From a virus (taxonomy: Duplodnaviria > Heunggongvirae > Uroviricota > Caudoviricetes): a stretch of DNA of 23,939 bases. Under the pieces are notes generated by a model. That model did no database searches. It had not been told where the DNA came from and saw only the letters and a program-made list of their open reading frames with translations. Shown here in pieces: positions 12,430 through 22,698 of the stretch. The translations under genes and the position numbers were made by a program. Position 1 is the first letter of the stretch, and each line of letters opens with the position of its first letter. The stretch spans positions 1 to 23,939 of the IMG/VR virus record IMGVR_UViG_2823670853_000004; one strand, written 5' to 3'.

Positions 12430-12464
12430 TATAACAAACAAAAAAATTTTGTTTGTTATATTTT
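12430..12464. terminator. Bidirectional hairpin between convergent Q and the GmrSD-like gene; T-run on plus strand
   Basis: Perfect inverted repeat TATAACAAACAAAA (12430-12443), loop AAA, TTTTGTTTGTTATA (12447-12460), followed by TTTT (12461-12464). Stem is AT-rich, so strength is uncertain. The minus-strand stop codon of the GmrSD-like gene (12456-12458) lies inside the right arm. Confidence 0.5.
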
Positions 12465-14039
12465 ACCTGTCATAGCTTTTAAAGCAAGTTCATTTAAATC
12501 CTCTTCGCGCTGGTTTATAAAATCACCATAAGCACTCTTTCCATTCCGTAGATTCGGATGAATCACCGCAGCATCAAAGATCATATCCCTCTCAGCCTCA
12601 TGCACTGTTGGAAAGTACACATCAGGATTCGAATCTGAAATTTGATTATTATCCTGAGCAGTTAAAAATGCAATATTAGCTATTATATTTGACTCATGAA
12701 ATGGAATTCCTTGCCTAGCCAGGTATGCCTTCGGATATATGTGGTGGAATTGTCTTGAATTATATGCTGACAAAGATGTATCAAGGTCAACCACCTTGCC
12801 TGTAATAAAACTCCGTGGAGACAACTGAGCTAACAAGCAAATAGATGCTTTTGCTGCTGAGGAATTAATTCTCCAAGTTTTTCTAAAAAACCCGGTTTCA
12901 ATTTTAGGTACTGGTTGAATATAATCATCTGGAGTACTTATAACGCTATCCATGGCGATAACATCCTCCATAACATAGGTGTTTGTTCCTGCTTTATATC
13001 TTTGCGAAAATGCACAACACCAAAACCATCTTTTAATTGAACTATATTGATAACCCGTTGGGCGAGAGACCTTTGAGAAAAAATAGGTTATAGGTACTAA
13101 CATTATTGGGAATGGTAAAAAAATTGAATTTTTTATTTTTAGATCATTAGCTAAAAAATCAACGGCATTGCGGATACCTCTTTTTAAATCCTCCATTGCG
13201 GATAGAAGAGTTGTTGGATCAATGTCAATCAAAGTATCAGAATCAATCTTCTTATTGATTATTGCCGTCAAACAACGCATCAAAAGAATTTCATCAATCT
13301 GCTCATATCCAACTGACGCAAGATATTCTTTTAATGAATCCATTTCTGTGCGCAAATCAAATTTTTCTGACCATGTCCAAGCCGTTAGCAACTCAATTGT
13401 ACTTAAACTTGTACCAGATGAGTTAATTCTCTGGAATATTCTACAAACTTCTTGATTACTTCTTTCTTTAATCGTAACAATAGGGAACTCATAATCTTTA
13501 AATTTATCAACTAAATTTGCGATTCTATCTTGCTCATCTGCCGGGAATCGTCTTAATTCAGGCAGTAGTTTTGAGGTATCAAGAATACTGCTTAATGCAA
13601 CACTATTTTTTCCTTTTGGTATATCGACAACATTGCAAAAACTATCCGTAGCAGGAATATAATGTATATTAAATCTAGATGCCAAATCACTGTTTTCTGT
13701 TTTCCTGTGGGCATTGAATACTCCAAATAAAGTTGTTAACCGCTGCTGCCCATCCAAAACATAATTAACAGGATAATCTTCTTTCACGTCAGGAAGATGA
13801 AAACCTCCTACATTTCTTTCAAACTTTAACGGTGTCTTTGTTGACCATAATAACAACGAGCCAACAGGGTAACCACTATAAATGGAGTCAATCAAACCTA
13901 ATATCTGCTCATCCGTCCATACGAAATCACGTTGAAACGCAGGAATTTTAATATTTCCACGGGTAACATCATCCAATAAAGATGCTAATCTTTGGTTACC
14001 TGAATCAATCTTTTTCTTAGAGTTTACATTATTTTCCAT
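12456..14039 (-). CDS. DUF262/DUF1524 (GmrSD-family) putative type IV modification-dependent restriction nuclease
   Basis: 527 aa. N-terminal DUF262 motifs IPAFQRDFVW and VLDGQQRLTTLFG; C-terminal DUF1524-type His-Me finger motifs FHHIYPKA and NIAFLTAQDNNQISDSNP. AGGA ribosome-binding site 6 nt upstream. Gene is AT-rich by eye. Confidence 0.8.
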   Translation of the reverse strand: MENNVNSKKKIDSGNQRLASLLDDVTRGNIKIPAFQRDFVWTDEQILGLIDSIYSGYPVGSLLLWSTKTPLKFERNVGGFHLPDVKEDYPVNYVLDGQQRLTTLFGVFNAHRKTENSDLASRFNIHYIPATDSFCNVVDIPKGKNSVALSSILDTSKLLPELRRFPADEQDRIANLVDKFKDYEFPIVTIKERSNQEVCRIFQRINSSGTSLSTIELLTAWTWSEKFDLRTEMDSLKEYLASVGYEQIDEILLMRCLTAIINKKIDSDTLIDIDPTTLLSAMEDLKRGIRNAVDFLANDLKIKNSIFLPFPIMLVPITYFFSKVSRPTGYQYSSIKRWFWCCAFSQRYKAGTNTYVMEDVIAMDSVISTPDDYIQPVPKIETGFFRKTWRINSSAAKASICLLAQLSPRSFITGKVVDLDTSLSAYNSRQFHHIYPKAYLARQGIPFHESNIIANIAFLTAQDNNQISDSNPDVYFPTVHEAERDMIFDAAVIHPNLRNGKSAYGDFINQREEDLNELALKAMTGKI

Positions 14040-14323: not shown

Positions 14324-15001
14324 CTAGAACGTGACAGCCTTGTCAAAGCCAGAAATAATTGTATAAGAAATAGACGAGTTATCAGCCTTGTTCACTTTGA
14401 ACTTGGCACCTTTGTAAGCGATAACGTCACTTCCCTTAGAATCTACAGAAAAATCTGTTGTAAATGCTGCACGAGCCATATCGTTTGCAAATTCACGATA
14501 GGTGAACTTCATTACACCGCCTGCATTTCCATTGTATTCGATAGTCTTAACCAATGAGTTACTAACTCGACACAGCCCATCAGGAACACGTTTGATAGAA
14601 ATTTCTGATGCAGTATAAGAAGTACCATTTGGCGGTGATATCTCATTTTTTGCAGCATCGTAACTAACATAATCAACATAGTTACCGATTTGCCCATAGA
14701 GATTTTTTAACGCAACAGCTTGAGGGTTATGATAATTGCGGTAAATTCCATTCCCCTCACTGCAATATGTACCAGCAGCGATAGAAGACAATGCACCATT
14801 AGCCGCACCAAGTTCTAGTACGTCCGTTTTAAATCCAGTAGCAGATGTGATAATGGGATCGCCCATGTAGGCGGTAGCACTTTGCCCAATAGCAGGCTTC
14901 ACCACTTCAATAGCAGTGATATTTCGGTTAGAAGCATGTGGCACGCAACCAGTTAGGATTACAGCAAGAGATATTGGTAACGCTACATTATTAATTTTCA
15001 T
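14324..15001 (-). CDS. Putative lipoprotein of unknown function (about 225 aa precursor)
   Basis: ORF 14324..15055 trimmed to ATG at 15001: MKINNVALPISLAVILTGC has a signal peptide and lipobox (LTGC). Mature part is Ser/Thr/Asn/Gly/Tyr-rich with alternating-hydrophobic beta-strand character, ends in Phe, two Cys. AT-rich. No family recognised. Confidence 0.6.
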   Translation of the reverse strand: MKINNVALPISLAVILTGCVPHASNRNITAIEVVKPAIGQSATAYMGDPIITSATGFKTDVLELGAANGALSSIAAGTYCSEGNGIYRNYHNPQAVALKNLYGQIGNYVDYVSYDAAKNEISPPNGTSYTASEISIKRVPDGLCRVSNSLVKTIEYNGNAGGVMKFTYREFANDMARAAFTTDFSVDSKGSDVIAYKGAKFKVNKADNSSISYTIISGFDKAVTF

Positions 15002-15025
15002 TTTTAGCCTATTATTCTTTTCTTG

Positions 15026-15060
15026 ACAAAAAACAAGGCGATATCTGATTGACATCGCCT
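15026..15060 (-). terminator. Possible weak terminator between the DinI-like gene and the lipoprotein gene
   Basis: Inverted repeat AGGCGAT/ATCGCCT (15036-15060) with an 11-nt loop, followed on the minus strand by TTGTTTTTTG. Loop is long, so weak. Confidence 0.3.
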
Positions 15061-15114: not shown

Positions 15115-15348
15115 TCAATGCAGCCAGCTGTCGTCTTCCCACACCTTCTGCATAATTTTCATCACTTGTTTTCTTTCTTCGTACAGTTGCAGTCCGGTCA
15201 GTTCCACACCGTTAGAGCTACCTTTACGGATACGGATTACCGTTTTGGGATACAGGGGGCGCAGATTGCGGTAAAGCTCGGATTCAAGGGCGTCCAGGGT
15301 AGACTGGCTAATCTTCTGCTCTTTATCGATCATTATTTCAATGCGCAT
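15115..15348 (-). CDS. DinI-family protein (77 aa)
   Basis: ORF-track entry 15115..15420 trimmed to ATG at 15348 (MRIEIMIDKEQ...), GAGGTGA Shine-Dalgarno 5 nt upstream. Aligns by eye with E. coli DinI (MRIE start, LDAL..EL, YP, C-terminal WEDDSWL versus WESADDW). Confidence 0.75.
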   Translation of the reverse strand: MRIEIMIDKEQKISQSTLDALESELYRNLRPLYPKTVIRIRKGSSNGVELTGLQLYEERKQVMKIMQKVWEDDSWLH

Positions 15349-15358
15349 AAAAGTCACC

Positions 15359-15547
15359 TCAGCTGATGACATCCATTGAGCGGTTGTATTCGTGGCTTCT
15401 GATTTTTGCCATGAGTTCATCAGTCAATTCAGAAACCCACTGCAGAGCCAGCCCCTTCTCTTCATCACTACACTCACTAGCCGCTACAAGCTTAAGAAAA
15501 AAATCAATGCGCTGGAGCTTCAAAGACTCCAAAAAATAGTCCTGCAT
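15359..15547 (-). CDS. Small acidic protein (62 aa), first gene of the LexA-controlled operon; possible antirepressor-like (Tum N-terminal-like) protein
   Basis: Strong AGGAGGA ribosome-binding site 4 nt before the ATG; LexA box at the promoter; stop TGA lies 10 nt before the DinI-like ATG. The antirepressor assignment is by analogy with 186 tum, not sequence recognition. Confidence 0.55.
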   Translation of the reverse strand: MQDYFLESLKLQRIDFFLKLVAASECSDEEKGLALQWVSELTDELMAKIRSHEYNRSMDVIS

Positions 15548-15701: not shown

Positions 15702-18143
15702 TTAATACAGGTTCCGCCACTTATCATCTTCCTGCAAACGCTGGTTCCGATAGAAGATACGCAGGCCTGCTCCTGACGGAATACTGCCGCCGCGAAGGAG
15801 TAAATCGACCTCTTTCTCGCTGCCATCAAATCCTCTGGATTTCAGTTCATAGACGAGATGCTGTCGTTGATGGTCTGTAATTCGCTGTTTGTAGTCTCTA
15901 CGCCGTTTCGGTTTCACCAGACGTAACCTTGCAGCCAGTTCCCGGCGCTCCTTTTTGTTCATACTGTGCAGGTAATCGTGCAACACCTTGTCATCCATGC
16001 GGGTAATGTCCGTTCTGGGGTCCCCATCAGCTGATTTATCTTTCTCCTGTTGGTTCAAATTTTCAGCAAGGGGACAGTTATTGCCACGAGTCCAAGGGGC
16101 GCAAGCGCCCTGGTCGGCTGCCGCCTCCTGAACGTCAACGGCCTTACGAACCATTTTCCACTTCACCGCATGAGTGCAGATCTTGCCCTCTGCAATGGGT
16201 GACCAGATGCCATAAATACGAATACCGTGATCGCCATATGCGGTCGGTTCTTCGTTGATTTCATAAGCAGTTCTGATGAGGTGATATTTGCGGGGAACCA
16301 GTACGCCGCCCTGCTTCATGATGTAGGTGGCAAAACAACCAGCATCAGCAGCAGCCAGGATTGCATCAAGGCGCGGGTTATCCAGTACCGGCGCACCTGC
16401 TTTTTTGTCCCCCTGTTGCCTTGCCGACTGACCAGCCAGCAATCGCAGTTCACGGTAAGCCTGACGCCCCGGAATGCCAAAGAAGCGGAATTGCTGAACA
16501 CGATGCAGAGACGCCCAGGCATTAACGTATTCAGCGTTATCACGCAGGGATTTACCCGTTTCCTTGCTGATCTCGCCAGCCAGACCACGCCCGTCAATGT
16601 TCTTACTGATGTATTTCGCGATGTAGCTTGTTGGCGTACCTTTGCGCGGGTTTATCAGCTCAGACTTAAAGCGTGGTCCCGTGTTATTACCCAGCTCCTC
16701 GCGGTCTTCACGAATGGCAAACTTACGCAACAAAGCAGTAATGGTGCGGCGATCTTTTTTGCGCATAAAACACAACAGGTGCCAGTGAACTGTACCGTCA
16801 TGATGCGGCTCAGCCACCCGCACGCCATACCAGCGCAATCCGGCTTTGTGCATCGCCTTACGAAATGCAGCAAACATGCCGACCAGATAATCACTGCTTT
16901 GTATTACCGTCGTATTTGTCCAGGTCGGGTTGGGCCTGCCGTTATTTAGCGTGGAATGGAAACGTGACGGACAGGTGATGGTGTAGAAAACGGCGCAGTC
17001 ACCGCGCATTTCCGCGATAAGCTCCAGACCTTTAACACAGGCCATCATCTCATTGCGGCGATGCGCAGGGTTGCTGCTGCTGGCGTTTACCACATCCTCC
17101 ATGTCCAGCGTGTCGCCGTCTTCGTTCACCAGTTCATGAGAACGGAAAAACTCCAGCGACTTACGGCGCTGCTCACGTTTATGCATCACGGCTTCATAGC
17201 TGACATAGGGAGATGCTTTTTTGCTGACCAGGCAAACAGCACGCAACTGCTCTTCCCGCCATTCGCAACGCATCTTCCATAATTTCCGGTACCACCAATC
17301 GGCGCACAACATACGCGCCAGCGAACCCGGAATGAGTTCATAGGGCACGGGTTTACGGCGGTTTCTTTTCCGGCGGAGTTGCTCAAACGCAGGCGGTATG
17401 ACATCTAGTCGCAGGGTTTCTGCTGCCACCTTTTCCCATGTCTTGCGGATTTCTTCTGGCTTAACGTCATCGGTGGCATACAAATCGCCACAAGCTGCAT
17501 CAAGGCACATGCTCATATGCGCAGCAACAAGGGTGGACAGGCGTTTCACCTGATCCTGACTCATTTCAGGCAGAATCAGCAGGCCGTCCAGCCCTTCATG
17601 GCTTGCCATAAAGCGAAAAGAAGTGGATAGCTGACTGTCGCGTACATGCTCCAGTCGTTCCAGACATGGCTTAATCGTCTCACGTAAATAGCGGGAATAA
17701 GCCTTTGGCCTGCCCAGGCTGCTGAAGTATTCAATACGTTGCATCAGCGGCTTGCTGATATGGGAGGGCTGGGCGCTGACGTCTGCCAGAATGACCATGT
17801 CCGGGTTAAAACGCTGCTGCTCATGCGCCAACTTTGCCCGGCTAATGAGCTTATCCTGCTCCATTTCGCGCTGGACAGGATCACGGGATTCATTAAAGAA
17901 ATAACGCTCCCAGACCTGATCACTCAGTGCCTCGCGGCGCAGTTGTTCCTGCTCGTTATCGGTAGCGTACAGAGTGATCAGGTTTGAAAGCGCAGAAACC
18001 GGCGCAACTTCCGCCGGGTCCAGATAAGGGTTAATGGCTTTCTTAGGTAAATTCCACGAATAACCCCCGGCAGAATTCTCAATGCTACCGGAAGTTACAC
18101 TGACAAATGGATCGGCAAGACGGCCTGTGCTGATCTCTGTCAC
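15702..18143 (-). CDS. A: Replication initiation protein / rolling-circle endonuclease (gpA-like)
   Basis: 813 aa in the P2 A position, last gene of the early operon; contains a [12 protein letters not shown]-type Rep motif; start overlaps the upstream stop (ATGA). Confidence 0.9.
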
Positions 18144-19150
18144 TCACAGACTCCTGCATATACACTGCTGCACACCGCTTTATCATTCATGCCTGCCAGC
18201 AGGTCAAACTGCATACCGCCCCGAGTCGTTAAGGCCCAGTCCCGATAAGTTTCAATGCCATAAGCATCAACAGTTATGACTTCGATCCGTTTTTCAGCAC
18301 GGCGCGGATCATGCGTGGATGGAAAGAACGTTGAATTGCCACGTCTTGAACATTCCGCAACCAGTCTTTCCCACTCAGCCACTCGGCGGATTTCTTCTGG
18401 CCAGCGTTGGAAAATCTCTCCAAGTTCTGACTTGCGAGCATGAATGCATGGCATACAACCGACACGACTGCATCCCTGCATATAAAGGGGGTTAGGCTTA
18501 ATGCCATGACGTTTGGCAATAGCAAACACATCCTCATGCAGCCAATTAAGGATCGGACGATAAACATGCAGCCCCAGAGTATTGTCTGCATCGTCCTCCC
18601 ACTCAGGCAACAATGCACGTTCCGGTGATTCCTGCCCCCGGACTCCTTGCCAACTGATTACCTCATCGTATTCATCCAGAGCTGGATCGATTACCTGTGT
18701 ACGTATTGGTTCATGTTTCAGTTCAAAAGTGCAGAAACGAGCTTTTGTTGAAGGGAAGCGACCTTTCCACATGCACAAATCAAGAAACGGAACGCCGGTT
18801 GGTTTAAGGATTTCCAGTGCCCGGTAAATACGTTCCTCAGCCTCATCTGTCGACATACCACATTCCTCAACGAGAGAAATGGGCCACTTTTCCGCAATGA
18901 ATTTACGTTTCCCTTCTATCTGGCGTGTGAAATCCGCTTTGACGCGAATAATCTTGCCCAGCTTTGATTCCAGATAATCCAGATATTCTATTGTCTGTGG
19001 ATGTTCATGACCCGTATCGGCAAATACAGAAATATGCGGAACATCGTTTTCAATGGCTCTTAGCCATTGAGCGAGACTATCTTTGCCACCAGAAGTAGTG
19101 ATGACGTTAATGGTGCCTGAGGCAAAGCAACGCGGATCGATAGCATTCAT
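18140..19150 (-). CDS. PAPS-reductase-family (PP-loop ATP pyrophosphatase, DndC-like) protein
   Basis: 336 aa; N-terminal PP-loop TTSGGKDS; C-terminal Cys cluster ([11 protein letters not shown]); ATGA coupling to Dam upstream and A downstream. Confidence 0.8.
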
Positions 19151-19995
19151 GCGCGTACCTCAACGGTACGGTCAGAGCCGCTGGCAAAATCGACACCAAA
19201 CCACCCAGCTGATTTGGTGGCAATGATTTCTGTTGCAGATTTACTCTCGCCAGCTGACACGCCAATGCTGCGTTTTGTCTTGATGTAGTGGTGAGTGAAA
19301 TTGCGATACAGCGAGCGGATCAGGGATGTGTCACTGTTAGAAACAATGATCGGATGTCCTTCTGATGACCGATGTTCAAGAACGGATGCCAGGTGATACT
19401 GGTCATCTTCAGTGAAGCCGGCAGTGTGATAACCGGAAAACGTACCGTCATAAGGCGGATCGCAATACACAACATCCCCCGCGTGCAACATTGCCAGCGT
19501 TTCATCGAAGCTGGCGCAGATAAATGTTGCCCGCTGGGCTTTTTCTGCAAATGCACGAATTTCTTTTTCAGGGAAATACGGATTTTTATAATTACCGTAG
19601 GGAATGTTGAAATGCCCGCTCTTGTTATAGCGACATAAACCACGGTAACCGTGACGATTGAGATACAGGAAATATACTGCTTTCATGAAATCAGTAATTT
19701 CAGTTGAGTAATTAAACTCCTGCCTTATGTTGTAATAAGCCATCTCCCTGTTTGCGTTCTCAAATAAAACTCTGGCGCGAGATATAAACGATTCACAATC
19801 AGCGGCAACCTTTTTATAGAGGTTGATTAAATCAGGATTAATATCCGCAACCAGATAGCTGGGGTAATCCGTCTCCATCATCACTGCACAGGAACCCGCG
19901 AAAGGTTCAACCAGTCGCGGGCCAGCAGGAAGGTATTTTTTCAGTTCTGCCATAATGGCCGTTTTATTTCCCGCCCATTTCAAGATGGTGCTCAT
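19147..19995 (-). CDS. dam: DNA adenine methyltransferase (Dam family, probable GATC N6-adenine MTase)
   Basis: ORF 19147..20055 trimmed to ATG at 19995 ([11 protein letters not shown], the Dam N-terminal signature); catalytic DPPY motif ([10 protein letters not shown]); AdoMet-binding EPFAGSCAV. Start overlaps the zinc-finger gene stop (ATGA). Confidence 0.85.
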
Positions 19996-20219
19996 ACAGC
20001 ACCTCCGTTGTAATGTTTGCCTTTCAGTTCTGCGATTTCCTGACAGGTAATGCAAAGCTGCACTCCCGGAATGGCGCGGCGTCGTGCTGGCGGAATTGGC
20101 GCTTCACATTCAATGCAAAGTACGCGTGACACGCCCGGTGTTTTGGCACGGGCAGCACGGATATGGCGCTGGCGTTCTTCTTCAACGCGCTGCTGTACGA
20201 GATCCATTGCATCAGCCAT
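19992..20219 (-). CDS. TraR/DksA-family C4 zinc-finger protein
   Basis: 75 aa with CIECEAPIP...CITCQ (Cys-X2-Cys ... Cys-X2-Cys); position corresponds to the small zinc-finger ORF between B and A in P2-family phages. Confidence 0.7.
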   Translation of the reverse strand: MADAMDLVQQRVEEERQRHIRAARAKTPGVSRVLCIECEAPIPPARRRAIPGVQLCITCQEIAELKGKHYNGGAV

Positions 20220-20458
20220 TAGTGGCTCTCCTGCGCTTCGTTCTGGATTGCTTCAGCAGTCACACGCAGCAGTTCTGCCGCTTCGACGTGGTTTAGCTGG
20301 CGGGATGTAATATGACACGCCAGACTATCAAGGCGAGCTGCCATTGCTTCAGCCCTTGCCCGGCGTTCTTCCAGACGAGCCTCTGTCAGTAAAATATTAA
20401 GCCCTGCGTCATCCGGTCCGGTTTTAGTCGTGAGGGTTTCAATATTACGCATAATCAA
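20219..20458 (-). CDS. Hypothetical early-operon protein (79 aa)
   Basis: ORF in operon context, coupled to the downstream zinc-finger gene; no motif recognised. Confidence 0.5.
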   Translation of the reverse strand: MIMRNIETLTTKTGPDDAGLNILLTEARLEERRARAEAMAARLDSLACHITSRQLNHVEAAELLRVTAEAIQNEAQESH

Positions 20459-22506: not shown

Positions 22507-22698
22507 ATGCTTGGTAAGGTATTTTTTGTGGTTTTGTCATGTTCTTTGTTATTAAACCCACTAACTACCTATGCTAGAAATTATCCCTGCTCAGGGAAAA
22601 AGGGAGGTGTTTCTCACTGTACCTCAGATGGCAAATTCGTTTGCAATGATGGAACTATTAGTAAATCCAAAAAAATCTGTACTAAAAACTCACGATAA
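22507..22698 (+). CDS. Small secreted Cys-rich protein (63-aa precursor), unknown function
   Basis: GGAGG ribosome-binding site 7 nt upstream; hydrophobic signal peptide ([19 protein letters not shown]); about 40-aa Lys/Gly/Ser/Thr-rich mature peptide with four Cys; AT-rich; sits between cI and int. Confidence 0.5.

Follow-up and report, generated by a model that had tools for sequence, protein, structure and literature searches.

The window, by which we mean the whole 23,939-nucleotide stretch of the IMG/VR record IMGVR_UViG_2823670853_000004 that was analysed, is an Escherichia coli P2-family prophage with regulatory genes of the phage 186 type: a CI-type repressor, CII/CP76, a DinI-like Tum-type protein and an integrase. 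The present analysis concerns two adjoining genes of its early operon, situated immediately upstream of the replication gene A. One encodes a Dam-family methylase and the other a PP-loop protein of the PAPS_reduct superfamily (PAPS, 3'-phosphoadenosine-5'-phosphosulfate), referred to below as the PAPS-like protein. Approximately 2.7 kb around the two genes are 99.5% identical to the prophage of E. coli OkiPb01677; the G+C content is 0.46 for dam and 0.48 for the PAPS-like gene, compared with 0.53-0.55 in the flanks. RefSeq already carries annotations for the two genes, and phage 186 has been on record for decades as having the PAPS-like gene, without an assigned function. From the upstream end, the genes of this region are:

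20219-20458, minus strand: DUF2732 gene, upstream of the TraR/DksA-type gene
19992-20219, minus strand: TraR/DksA-type C4 zinc-finger gene, 75 aa (PF01258, 3.1e-11; TIGR02419, 65.8 bits, cut-off 59.7; PHROG 54)
19147-19995, minus strand: Dam-family methylase, 282 aa (PF02086, 2.9e-75; TIGR00571, 318.8 bits)
18140-19150, minus strand: PAPS_reduct-superfamily PP-loop protein, 336 aa (PF01507, 5.7e-34)
15702-18143, minus strand: replication initiator gene A, a rolling-circle endonuclease of the P2 GpA family, 813 aa from a GTG start (PF05840, 7.9e-126)

Gene order and junctions

The TraR/DksA-type gene is a conserved gene of the early operon and marks the upstream boundary of a variable slot, which ends at A. 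Within it, consecutive genes share four nucleotides, and a Shine-Dalgarno-like site precedes each start, as read directly from the sequence:

20002-20006, minus strand: GGAGG, Shine-Dalgarno-like, 6 nt before the Dam ATG, within the TraR gene
19992-19995, minus strand: ATGA, overlap of TraR stop and Dam start
19158-19161, minus strand: GAGG, Shine-Dalgarno-like, 7 nt before the PAPS-like start, within dam
19147-19150, minus strand: ATGA, overlap of Dam stop and PAPS-like start
18151-18155, minus strand: AGGAG, Shine-Dalgarno-like, 7 nt before the GTG of A, within the PAPS-like gene
18140-18143, minus strand: GTGA, overlap of PAPS-like stop and putative GTG start of A

An earlier note on this DNA had described ATGA overlaps on both sides of the PAPS-like gene; this is correct for the junction with dam, whereas the junction with A reads GTGA. 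The latter overlap is conditional, because the start of A is called differently by PGAP, which, in the 99.5%-identical E. coli locus, begins the gene with an ATT situated 60 nt downstream from the GTG (window 18081-18143, minus strand; L154, 6982-7044). Since the GTG is preceded by a good Shine-Dalgarno site and the corresponding orf84/A junction of phage 186 is a clear ATGA, the overlapping GTG start is probably the right one and the database start wrong.

Between the repressor region and A, the minus strand has a single promoter-like site, a pR-like one at 21897-21869, which is consistent with one early transcript; in the promoter and terminator scan of the region, sites were no more numerous than in shuffled sequences. 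At 19194-19219 (minus strand), inside the 3' end of dam and ~45 nt before the PAPS-like start, a 10-bp hairpin precedes a T-rich run; such sites are not commoner than in shuffles. According to the 186 record, the early operon of that phage has translation-dependent terminators.

The Dam methylase

The identification of the first gene as a Dam methylase, made in the earlier note, is borne out: the protein passes the cut-offs of PF02086 (2.9e-75, 253.7 bits, cut-off 22) and TIGR00571 (318.8 bits, cut-off 114.85), and its motifs, among them the catalytic DPPY and an N-terminal S-adenosylmethionine-binding motif, lie at the expected codons, as read from the sequence:

19963-19986, minus strand: ILKWAGNK, residues 4-11
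19891-19908, minus strand: EPFAGS, residues 30-35
19450-19461, minus strand: DPPY, residues 179-182, catalytic motif

With 285.1 bits, it stays below the cut-off of the equivalog model for the E. coli host Dam (PRK10904, 441), and on these scores it is a phage paralogue rather than the E. coli host gene. At the nucleotide level, dam is 95-96% identical to the dam genes of phages Cartapus, KP12 and RE2010 and of many Klebsiella P2-like phages. The nearest solved relative of the protein is E. coli Dam (2g1p; 246.9 bits over residues 4-263). It is a D12-class N6-adenine DNA methyltransferase, and because of this full-length similarity GATC specificity is likely.

Family, conserved residues and fold of the PAPS-like protein

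That the second gene encodes a PP-loop (SGGKDS) protein of the PAPS-reductase superfamily, as the earlier note had it, is supported by the match to PF01507 (5.7e-34). In tblastn searches, the protein is 81% identical over residues 4-336 to orf84 of phage 186 (NP_052288), and equally so to matches in a P2-like record and in Yersinia phage P37; at 40-46% identity there are proteins from phages of Pseudomonas, Serratia, Acidovorax, Stenotrophomonas, Burkholderia and Agrobacterium. The PHROG matches are 15238 (1.8e-85) and 424 (6.7e-82). Full-length similarity and the position upstream of A both place it in the 186 orf84 family. This family is large: among 8000 candidates scored, 6234 proteins matched at E<=1e-5, and at E<=1e-30 there are 342 clusters (50% identity); nearly all members are stand-alone proteins of 300-380 aa. 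Ten long representatives checked for fusions contained PAPS_reduct only, apart from one weak N-terminal methyltransferase match below the Pfam cut-off. A short phage subfamily, represented by a 265-aa protein of Vibrio phage 1.047.O, retains the PP-loop, RHCTDELK and RVGCFPC and ends in ..CRVCEI. In the same phage (L152, 344-3280), a CP83/DUF5405 gene of the 186 orf83 family lies three genes upstream of the short-type PAPS-like gene; DUF5405 may be a recurrent companion of PAPS-like genes.

The motifs of the PAPS-like protein are encoded as follows:

19076-19093, minus strand: SGGKDS, PP-loop
19001-19021, minus strand: ADTGHEH
18716-18739, minus strand: RFCTFELK, with C140
18626-18652, minus strand: WQGVRGQES
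18482-18493, minus strand: NPLY
18446-18466, minus strand: RVGCMPC, with C232 and C235
18143-18175, minus strand: disordered C-terminal tail, with C327 and C335

In an alignment of 40 representatives with 35-53% identity, the following are invariant or nearly so: the SGGKDS loop, D45-T46..E49, D124, F132, C140 and K145 (RFC..ELK), G169, R171 and E174 (G.R..ES), N220, L222 and Y223 (NPLY), R229, V230, C232 and C235 (RVGC.PC), E261, T308-G311-G312 and C327. The final two residues, C335-E336, are kept throughout, with the tail consensus C.S.YGLCE-COOH. The protein has cysteines at residues 8, 97, 126, 140, 227, 232, 235, 267, 327 and 335; across the wider family C140, C232 and C335 are invariant, C235 and C327 are conserved in at least 90%, and no others are retained, C8, C97, C227 and C267 being conserved within Enterobacterales only. 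RVGCmPC aligns to the iron-sulfur ligand motif of the adenosine-5'-phosphosulfate (APS) reductases (SIGCePC in 2goy, SIGCaPC in 7lhr). C140 lies in what we take to be the CC-like position of APS reductase, with T141 replacing the second cysteine.

An AlphaFold2 (AF2) model built from 40 diverse sequences has a mean predicted local distance difference test score (pLDDT) of 90.3 and a predicted template modelling score (pTM) of 0.88; its last 22 residues (315-336) form a disordered tail with values below 50. It replaces a poorer model from 26 close homologues (pLDDT 72.5), in which the C-terminal third was unresolved. The fold is that of a PAPS reductase: CysH and APS reductase are the best Foldseek matches (E ~1e-7, TMt 0.58-0.61), and 6vpu, 1sur, 2oq2 and 2o8v are recovered at E 1e-7 to 4e-6 and TMt 0.51-0.59. 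CysD, TtuA, FAD synthase, GMP synthase and YcfA follow, the last four at E 1e-4 to 1e-3 and TMt 0.3-0.4, and a structure search of BFVD returned only other phage 'PAPS reductases' and QueC. The PDB chain 21fy_C, labelled 'PptA', gave a weak profile match; a literature and fragment search yielded no identification of it. For the two alleles with unsaturated dS, the ratio of nonsynonymous to synonymous substitution rates (dN/dS) is 0.053 and 0.034, indicating purifying selection. Taken together, the invariant motifs, the confident fold and the low dN/dS point to an active, strongly constrained PP-loop enzyme. They also point to a nucleotide bound at the PP-loop and to use of a mobile C-terminal cysteine; an iron-sulfur cluster is probably held as well. 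Such a plan is common to CysH and APS reductase and, equally, to ATP-dependent sulfur insertion as in DndC, SspD and TtuA-type enzymes.

Relation to sulfate assimilation and phosphorothioation enzymes

The CysH-type models are all missed by a wide interval: the scores are 63.5 bits against a cut-off of 154 for PRK02090, 36.7 against 165.1 for TIGR00434 and 36.4 against 254.2 for TIGR02057, and the matches are confined to approximately residues 155-250. The APS-reductase model TIGR02055 gives 47.8 bits against 235.3. The C-terminal ECG(L/I)H catalytic motif of CysH is absent from the PAPS-like protein; a tail cysteine is present, in a different motif. Judged by these scores and motifs, the protein is not CysH and not a canonical sulfate-assimilation enzyme, in line with the earlier note, which had doubted such a role; across the CysH, APS- and PAPS-reductase models the scores are 36-64 bits against cut-offs of 154-254. 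The IbrA-type model PRK06850 likewise gives 22 bits against 536.

The specific likeness to DndC that the earlier note had seen is weak: the DndC equivalog TIGR03183 scores 17.2 bits against a cut-off of 290.4, and the PADLOC DndC models at most 24 bits. Among the PADLOC defence families, SspD ranks first (80 bits), followed by BrxP (43) and DndC (24). The SspD match (PDLC02782, E 4.9e-23), to a model without a curated cut-off, falls into two stretches, the better of which covers residues 126-264 of 336. Genes for the partners of such proteins were not found: neither DndD nor DndE occurs in the window or among the 354 genes that neighbour the PAPS-like gene at 53 diverse viral loci, and sspA, sspB and sspC are absent from the window and the surveyed loci. 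None of these 53 loci showed SspB/C, BrxC, an ABC- or ORC-type ATPase, a cysteine desulfurase or any cys gene near the family member.

Two further candidates were rejected. A role in 7-deazaguanine (QueC) chemistry was discarded, as only the PP-loop region matches QueC and Cap9 and no TGT or DpdA occurs among the open reading frames (ORFs) of the window that were scanned, namely those outside the structural genes below 12 kb. The only other anti-Dnd protein known, JSS1_004, belongs to a kinase/shutoff type unrelated to the PAPS-like protein.

Two separable genes in a variable slot

The two genes had been taken in the earlier note for a dedicated pair; each, however, occurs without the other. 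Phage 186 has orf84 in the same position upstream of A, and its slot holds an exonuclease (orf82), DUF5405 (orf83) and orf84, without dam. In Cartapus, conversely, dam overlaps A directly and there is no PAPS gene. A survey of 80 IMG/VR contigs carrying alleles 77-100% identical to the PAPS-like protein of the window found varying genes upstream of it: Dam in 34, TraR directly in 17 and DUF5405 in nine, the remainder including Rv2179c-like exonucleases, DUF3850/ASCH and, in lambdoid-type contigs, ParB helix-turn-helix (ParB-HTH) proteins. The Dam proteins upstream of close PAPS alleles fall into two lineages, which share 65-99% and 37-43% identity, respectively, with the Dam of the window.

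Of 5426 complete E. coli genomes, 1259 have a match to at least part of the 2.7-kb region, and the whole dam-PAPS-A arrangement is found in only 24. The PAPS gene itself is present in only 38 of the 5426: 24 carry the allele of the window, always adjoining dam, and 14 the 186-type allele (73% identical), adjoining A. These are megablast-detectable counts, a lower bound for divergent alleles; in up to ~1200 genomes the dam/A backbone was matched without a megablast-detectable PAPS gene. Dam and the PAPS-like gene are thus a mosaic of two independent accessory genes, not a dedicated pair.

The earlier note had also taken the overlaps to mean co-expression with the replication genes. As evidence of a role in replication, the coupling to A is uninformative, because whichever gene precedes A overlaps its start. 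The RefSeq note on 186 orf84 describes a gene of unknown function that is not essential, translation to its end being apparently needed for translation of A. The Eganvirus paper makes no mention of the PAPS-like gene, and nothing useful was found in the literature on 186 orf84 and on ParB/IbrA.

Neighbouring genes in other phages and the anti-Dnd cassette

For the genomic context of the wider family, ORFs were called at 53 viral loci with a PAPS-like protein sharing 41-67% identity with that of the window, and the neighbours were scanned against Pfam. At positions +-1/+-2 (204 genes) there are at least 20 DNA methyltransferases (seven D12, seven C5, four N4/N6 and two MT-A70) and a Mom homologue, compared with at least three DNA methyltransferases and one Mom at positions +-3/+-4 (150 genes), an enrichment of methyltransferases next to the PAPS-like gene (Fisher's exact p = 0.004). 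Genes for replication, recombination, terminase and integrase make up the other neighbours. In Agrobacterium phage Rivra (L153, 1050-4212), the PAPS-like gene is flanked by two methyltransferase genes, each of which overlaps it by 4 nt. In lambdoid-type contigs, alleles 81-85% identical to that of the window are found one or two genes downstream of ParB-HTH proteins of 260-300 aa; these pairings are:

L054, 3075-3968: ParB-HTH/PAPS-like pairing
L058, 2983-3813: ParB-HTH/PAPS-like pairing
L065, 2686-3471: ParB-HTH/PAPS-like pairing
L069, 3093-3998: ParB-HTH/PAPS-like pairing
L070, 3105-4004: ParB-HTH/PAPS-like pairing

The only phage member of the PAPS_reduct superfamily with a genetic phenotype, escape from DndFGH restriction, comes from the Vibrio crassostreae podophage 44E38.1: a two-gene cassette, consisting of p0018 (a PAPS-domain-Dam fusion) and an unknown gene, turns a Dnd-sensitive phage Dnd-resistant (Piel et al. 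2022; 10.1101/2021.05.05.442762). The cassette has later been cited as anti-Dnd and is probably what is catalogued as anti-Dnd p0020. If, as a comparative study proposes, DndH carries an inactive Dam domain that counters invader methylases, there would be a rationale for directing both a Dam and a PAPS-like enzyme against one defence. A tblastn search with the short-type Vibrio phage homologue returned 27 Vibrio records, none of them listed with a methylase fusion.

Function of the PAPS-like protein

A role in DNA modification or anti-restriction is, from the sequence comparisons, the best-supported reading over sulfate metabolism, because of the methyltransferase enrichment, the ParB-HTH neighbours and the Vibrio anti-Dnd cassette. 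More specifically, the PAPS-like protein is best read as a stand-alone nucleotide-dependent enzyme of counter-defence that transfers sulfur in a nucleic-acid-directed reaction, a proposal that we favour tentatively, with somewhat less than even confidence. ATP use, the iron-sulfur cluster, sulfur transfer, DNA as the substrate and an anti-Dnd/Ssp role are what we infer for it.

The two genes could then act in the following manner: Two independent accessory cassettes fill the slot that separates the TraR-like gene from A, within the early lytic operon of a P2-family prophage resembling 186 and Fels-2, and ribosomes would read both by stop-start coupling along the early transcript. The first, the Dam methylase, is probably GATC-specific and would protect GATC sites independently. 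In the second, the PP-loop may bind ATP or a sulfonucleotide, an oxygen would be activated by adenylation, and sulfur would be delivered via the tail cysteine or the cluster (C140, C232, C235). Comparable chemistry is thought to be performed by DndC, SspD and BrxP on the DNA phosphate. The sulfur source would be the host IscS, and host partners are possibly used. The outcome may be that nucleic acid is modified or that phosphorothioate-based immunity (Dnd, Ssp) is disturbed. Dam and the PAPS-like protein would thereby supply separately the kinds of domain that are fused in the Vibrio anti-Dnd cassette protein.

Several points weigh against this proposal. Phage 186 grows on hosts without Dnd, and modification of 186-type DNA was not reported in the literature searched. 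The characterised phosphorothioation systems all require, in addition to their PAPS-like protein, an NTPase together with a partner that binds DNA, and neither the window nor the surveyed phage loci hold DndD/E, SspB/C, BrxC or a cysteine desulfurase. The gene orf84 of 186 is annotated as non-essential. APS reductase has a P-loop, SGAED, that differs little from SGGKD, and APS or PAPS in place of ATP as the substrate is compatible with the sequence. The methyltransferase counts are lower bounds drawn from the top 25 families, and the ORF calling was crude. Finally, the architecture of the Vibrio fusion differs; the C-terminus is invariably free in the orf84 family, which excludes a C-terminal fusion, and the Vibrio phenotype was mapped to two genes and not to the PAPS domain alone (Piel et al. 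2022).

Among the alternatives, the one that survives best, unlikely as we consider it, is a substrate other than DNA: RNA (tRNA), a free nucleotide or a small molecule would be thiolated or adenylated as by TtuA, TtcA or YcfA, tuning translation, the nucleotide pool or an immune signal. The PP-loop and three-cysteine architecture would suit it, the Foldseek matches to TtuA, YcfA (6-thioguanine pathway), GMP synthase and FAD synthase indicate that the fold allows many acceptors, and neither a DNA-binding domain nor a DNA-scanning partner is encoded. The TtuA/YcfA-type matches, however, with E 1e-4 to 1e-3 and TMt 0.3-0.4, fall far short of the CysH and APS-reductase matches, and the neighbours are DNA methylases, Mom, ParB-HTH and replication/recombination genes, not RNA-modification genes.

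It is quite unlikely that the protein is a minimal, single-protein DNA sulfur-modification enzyme, which would introduce a phosphorothioate or a thio-base into phage DNA during replication, either with no partners of the DndD/E or SspB/C type or targeted via the adjacent methyltransferase or a ParB-like protein. If this were true, sulfur-modified DNA would be common in temperate phages, and the annotation 'viral cysH AMG' (auxiliary metabolic gene, AMG) would be wrong.

That annotation implies a thioredoxin-dependent PAPS or APS reductase raising the supply of sulfite and cysteine during infection, which we regard as improbable. It is the usual annotation of phage 'cysH' genes, and several papers class homologues as sulfur AMGs; moreover, CysH and APS reductases are the best structural matches, and the DT..P.T, G.R..(E/Q)S..R and PL(Y/W)..G motifs, the CxxC and the C-terminal tail cysteine are common to sulfonucleotide reductases. 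Against it stand the scores below the cut-offs of PRK02090, TIGR02055, TIGR00434 and TIGR02057, the missing ECG(L/I)H motif, a canonical SGGKDS PP-loop instead of the degenerate CysH loop, a helical insert of ~55 residues and an extra C-terminal region of ~100 residues. The gene further belongs to an early replication operon, and family members in the surveyed loci have methylase or ParB-like neighbours and never other cys genes. An E. coli host also normally carries its own cysH.

Equally improbable is a non-catalytic decoy, a mimic of host DndC or SspD that would bind the partners of these proteins and so poison the host phosphorothioation-restriction complex. The matches to the SspD, BrxP and DndC models, the anti-Dnd phenotype of the Vibrio cassette and a PAPS-like protein without partners of its own would fit; the PP-loop, the Asp/Glu/Arg/Lys residues and the five cysteines, (near-)invariant at 35-53% identity, together with a dN/dS of ~0.03-0.05, form an enzyme-like pattern and argue for catalysis instead.

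An obligate two-enzyme system, in which Dam and the PAPS-like protein jointly make one new hypermodified base or backbone mark, is distinctly improbable. The ATGA overlap that joins the genes, the occurrence of Dam of two lineages upstream of close PAPS alleles (34 of 80 IMG/VR loci), the PAPS-Dam fusion of the Vibrio phage and the Rivra gene flanked by methyltransferases speak in its favour. It is contradicted by PAPS without Dam in 186 and 14 E. coli genomes, by dam/A without PAPS in Cartapus, RE2010 and, as judged by megablast, up to ~1200 E. coli genomes, by TraR directly upstream of the PAPS gene in 17 loci, and by partner methyltransferases of unrelated classes (C5, N4/N6, MT-A70) in other phages. 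A mere translated leader, bringing ribosomes to A, is hardly credible: the 186 annotation ties translation of A to translation through the end of orf84 and any gene upstream of A overlaps its start, but the protein sequence is under strong purifying selection and family members with identical invariant residues occur in lambdoid, Mu-like and other phages without an A gene.

Phage 'PAPS reductase/cysH' genes rank with those that are counted most frequently as auxiliary sulfur-metabolism genes of viruses, and surveys treat PAPS_reduct genes of phages as the top sulfur AMG, 'cysH'. A single survey lists 627 phage 'PAPS reductase/cysH' genes and 380 'anti-Dnd p0020' matches in a single data set, p0020 not being described further there; assuming that the p0020 model derives from the cassette of Piel 2022, one superfamily is probably annotated in two conflicting ways. 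The signature of the family is that of a nucleotide-dependent iron-sulfur/cysteine sulfur-transfer enzyme, and its company is DNA methylases and ParB-like proteins, not cys genes. The orf84/PAPS-like family is probably a very common, mis-annotated phage gene family. As 186 is one of the best-developed genetic systems, the function of phage PAPS reductases is testable there.

Other genes of the prophage

Four further genes of the window were noted:

12456-14039, minus strand: 527-aa protein with GmrSD_N/DUF262 (Pfam 2.8e-35); PADLOC PDC-M55C 1.6e-64, HEC-05 and weak SspE N-domain matches
14324-15055, minus strand: 243-aa ORF adjoining the GmrSD_N gene, no family match
15115-15420, minus strand: DinI-like protein (Pfam 1e-21), in the position of the 186 Tum antirepressor
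22507-22698, plus strand: 63-aa cysteine-rich ORF with a signal-peptide-like N-terminus, between the CI-type repressor and the integrase, no Pfam match

The 527-aa protein, encoded between the portal gene and A in a hotspot of the P2 old/tin type, is a candidate modification-dependent (type IV) nuclease. The DinI-like protein in the Tum position suggests that the prophage is SOS-inducible like 186. The cysteine-rich ORF may be a moron.

Comparison with known systems

The closest counterpart of the PAPS-like gene is orf84 of phage 186 (CP84; NP_052288), which shares the position directly upstream of A, the 4-nt overlap and an early operon with DUF2732 and TraR/DksA ahead of A. The two loci differ in that Dam stands here where 186 has the exonuclease and DUF5405, and in the junction with A (GTGA here, ATGA in 186); the A proteins are only ~36% identical. 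Compared with Cartapus, RE2010 and KP12, in which dam overlaps A directly, the PAPS-like gene is inserted between the two.

With p0018 of Vibrio phage 44E38.1, the window shares the combination of a PAPS_reduct-superfamily domain and an adenine methylase in a phage. In p0018, however, both reside in one polypeptide with the PAPS domain N-terminal, whereas here they are separate, ATGA-overlapping genes and the PAPS-like protein ends in a free Cys-Glu C-terminus. The methylase of the fusion is of the phage 'Dam' type according to the paper, that of the window of the D12 class; the likeness of the PAPS domains is one of superfamily.

DndC, SspD and BrxP resemble the PAPS-like protein in the PAPS_reduct fold, the PP-loop and conserved cysteines; unlike them, it is encoded by a phage and not by a defence island, and lacks DndD/E, SspB/C, BrxC or desulfurase neighbours in the surveyed loci. 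The nucleotide-binding motifs and a flexible C-terminal tail with a conserved cysteine are shared with CysH and the Fe-S APS reductases, and with the latter also a CxxC aligned with the cluster ligands. By contrast, there is one cysteine rather than two (C140-T141) at what we take to be the 'CC' position, the tail is ..C.S.YGLCE-COOH and not ECG(L/I)H, and a helical insert and a C-terminal subdomain are added. The pairs of ParB-HTH and PAPS-like genes in lambdoid-type contigs (alleles 82-85% identical) resemble DndB-DndC as well as IbrB-IbrA of E. coli, which we take to be a ParB-like/PAPS-reductase-like pair; no ParB-like gene is present in the window.

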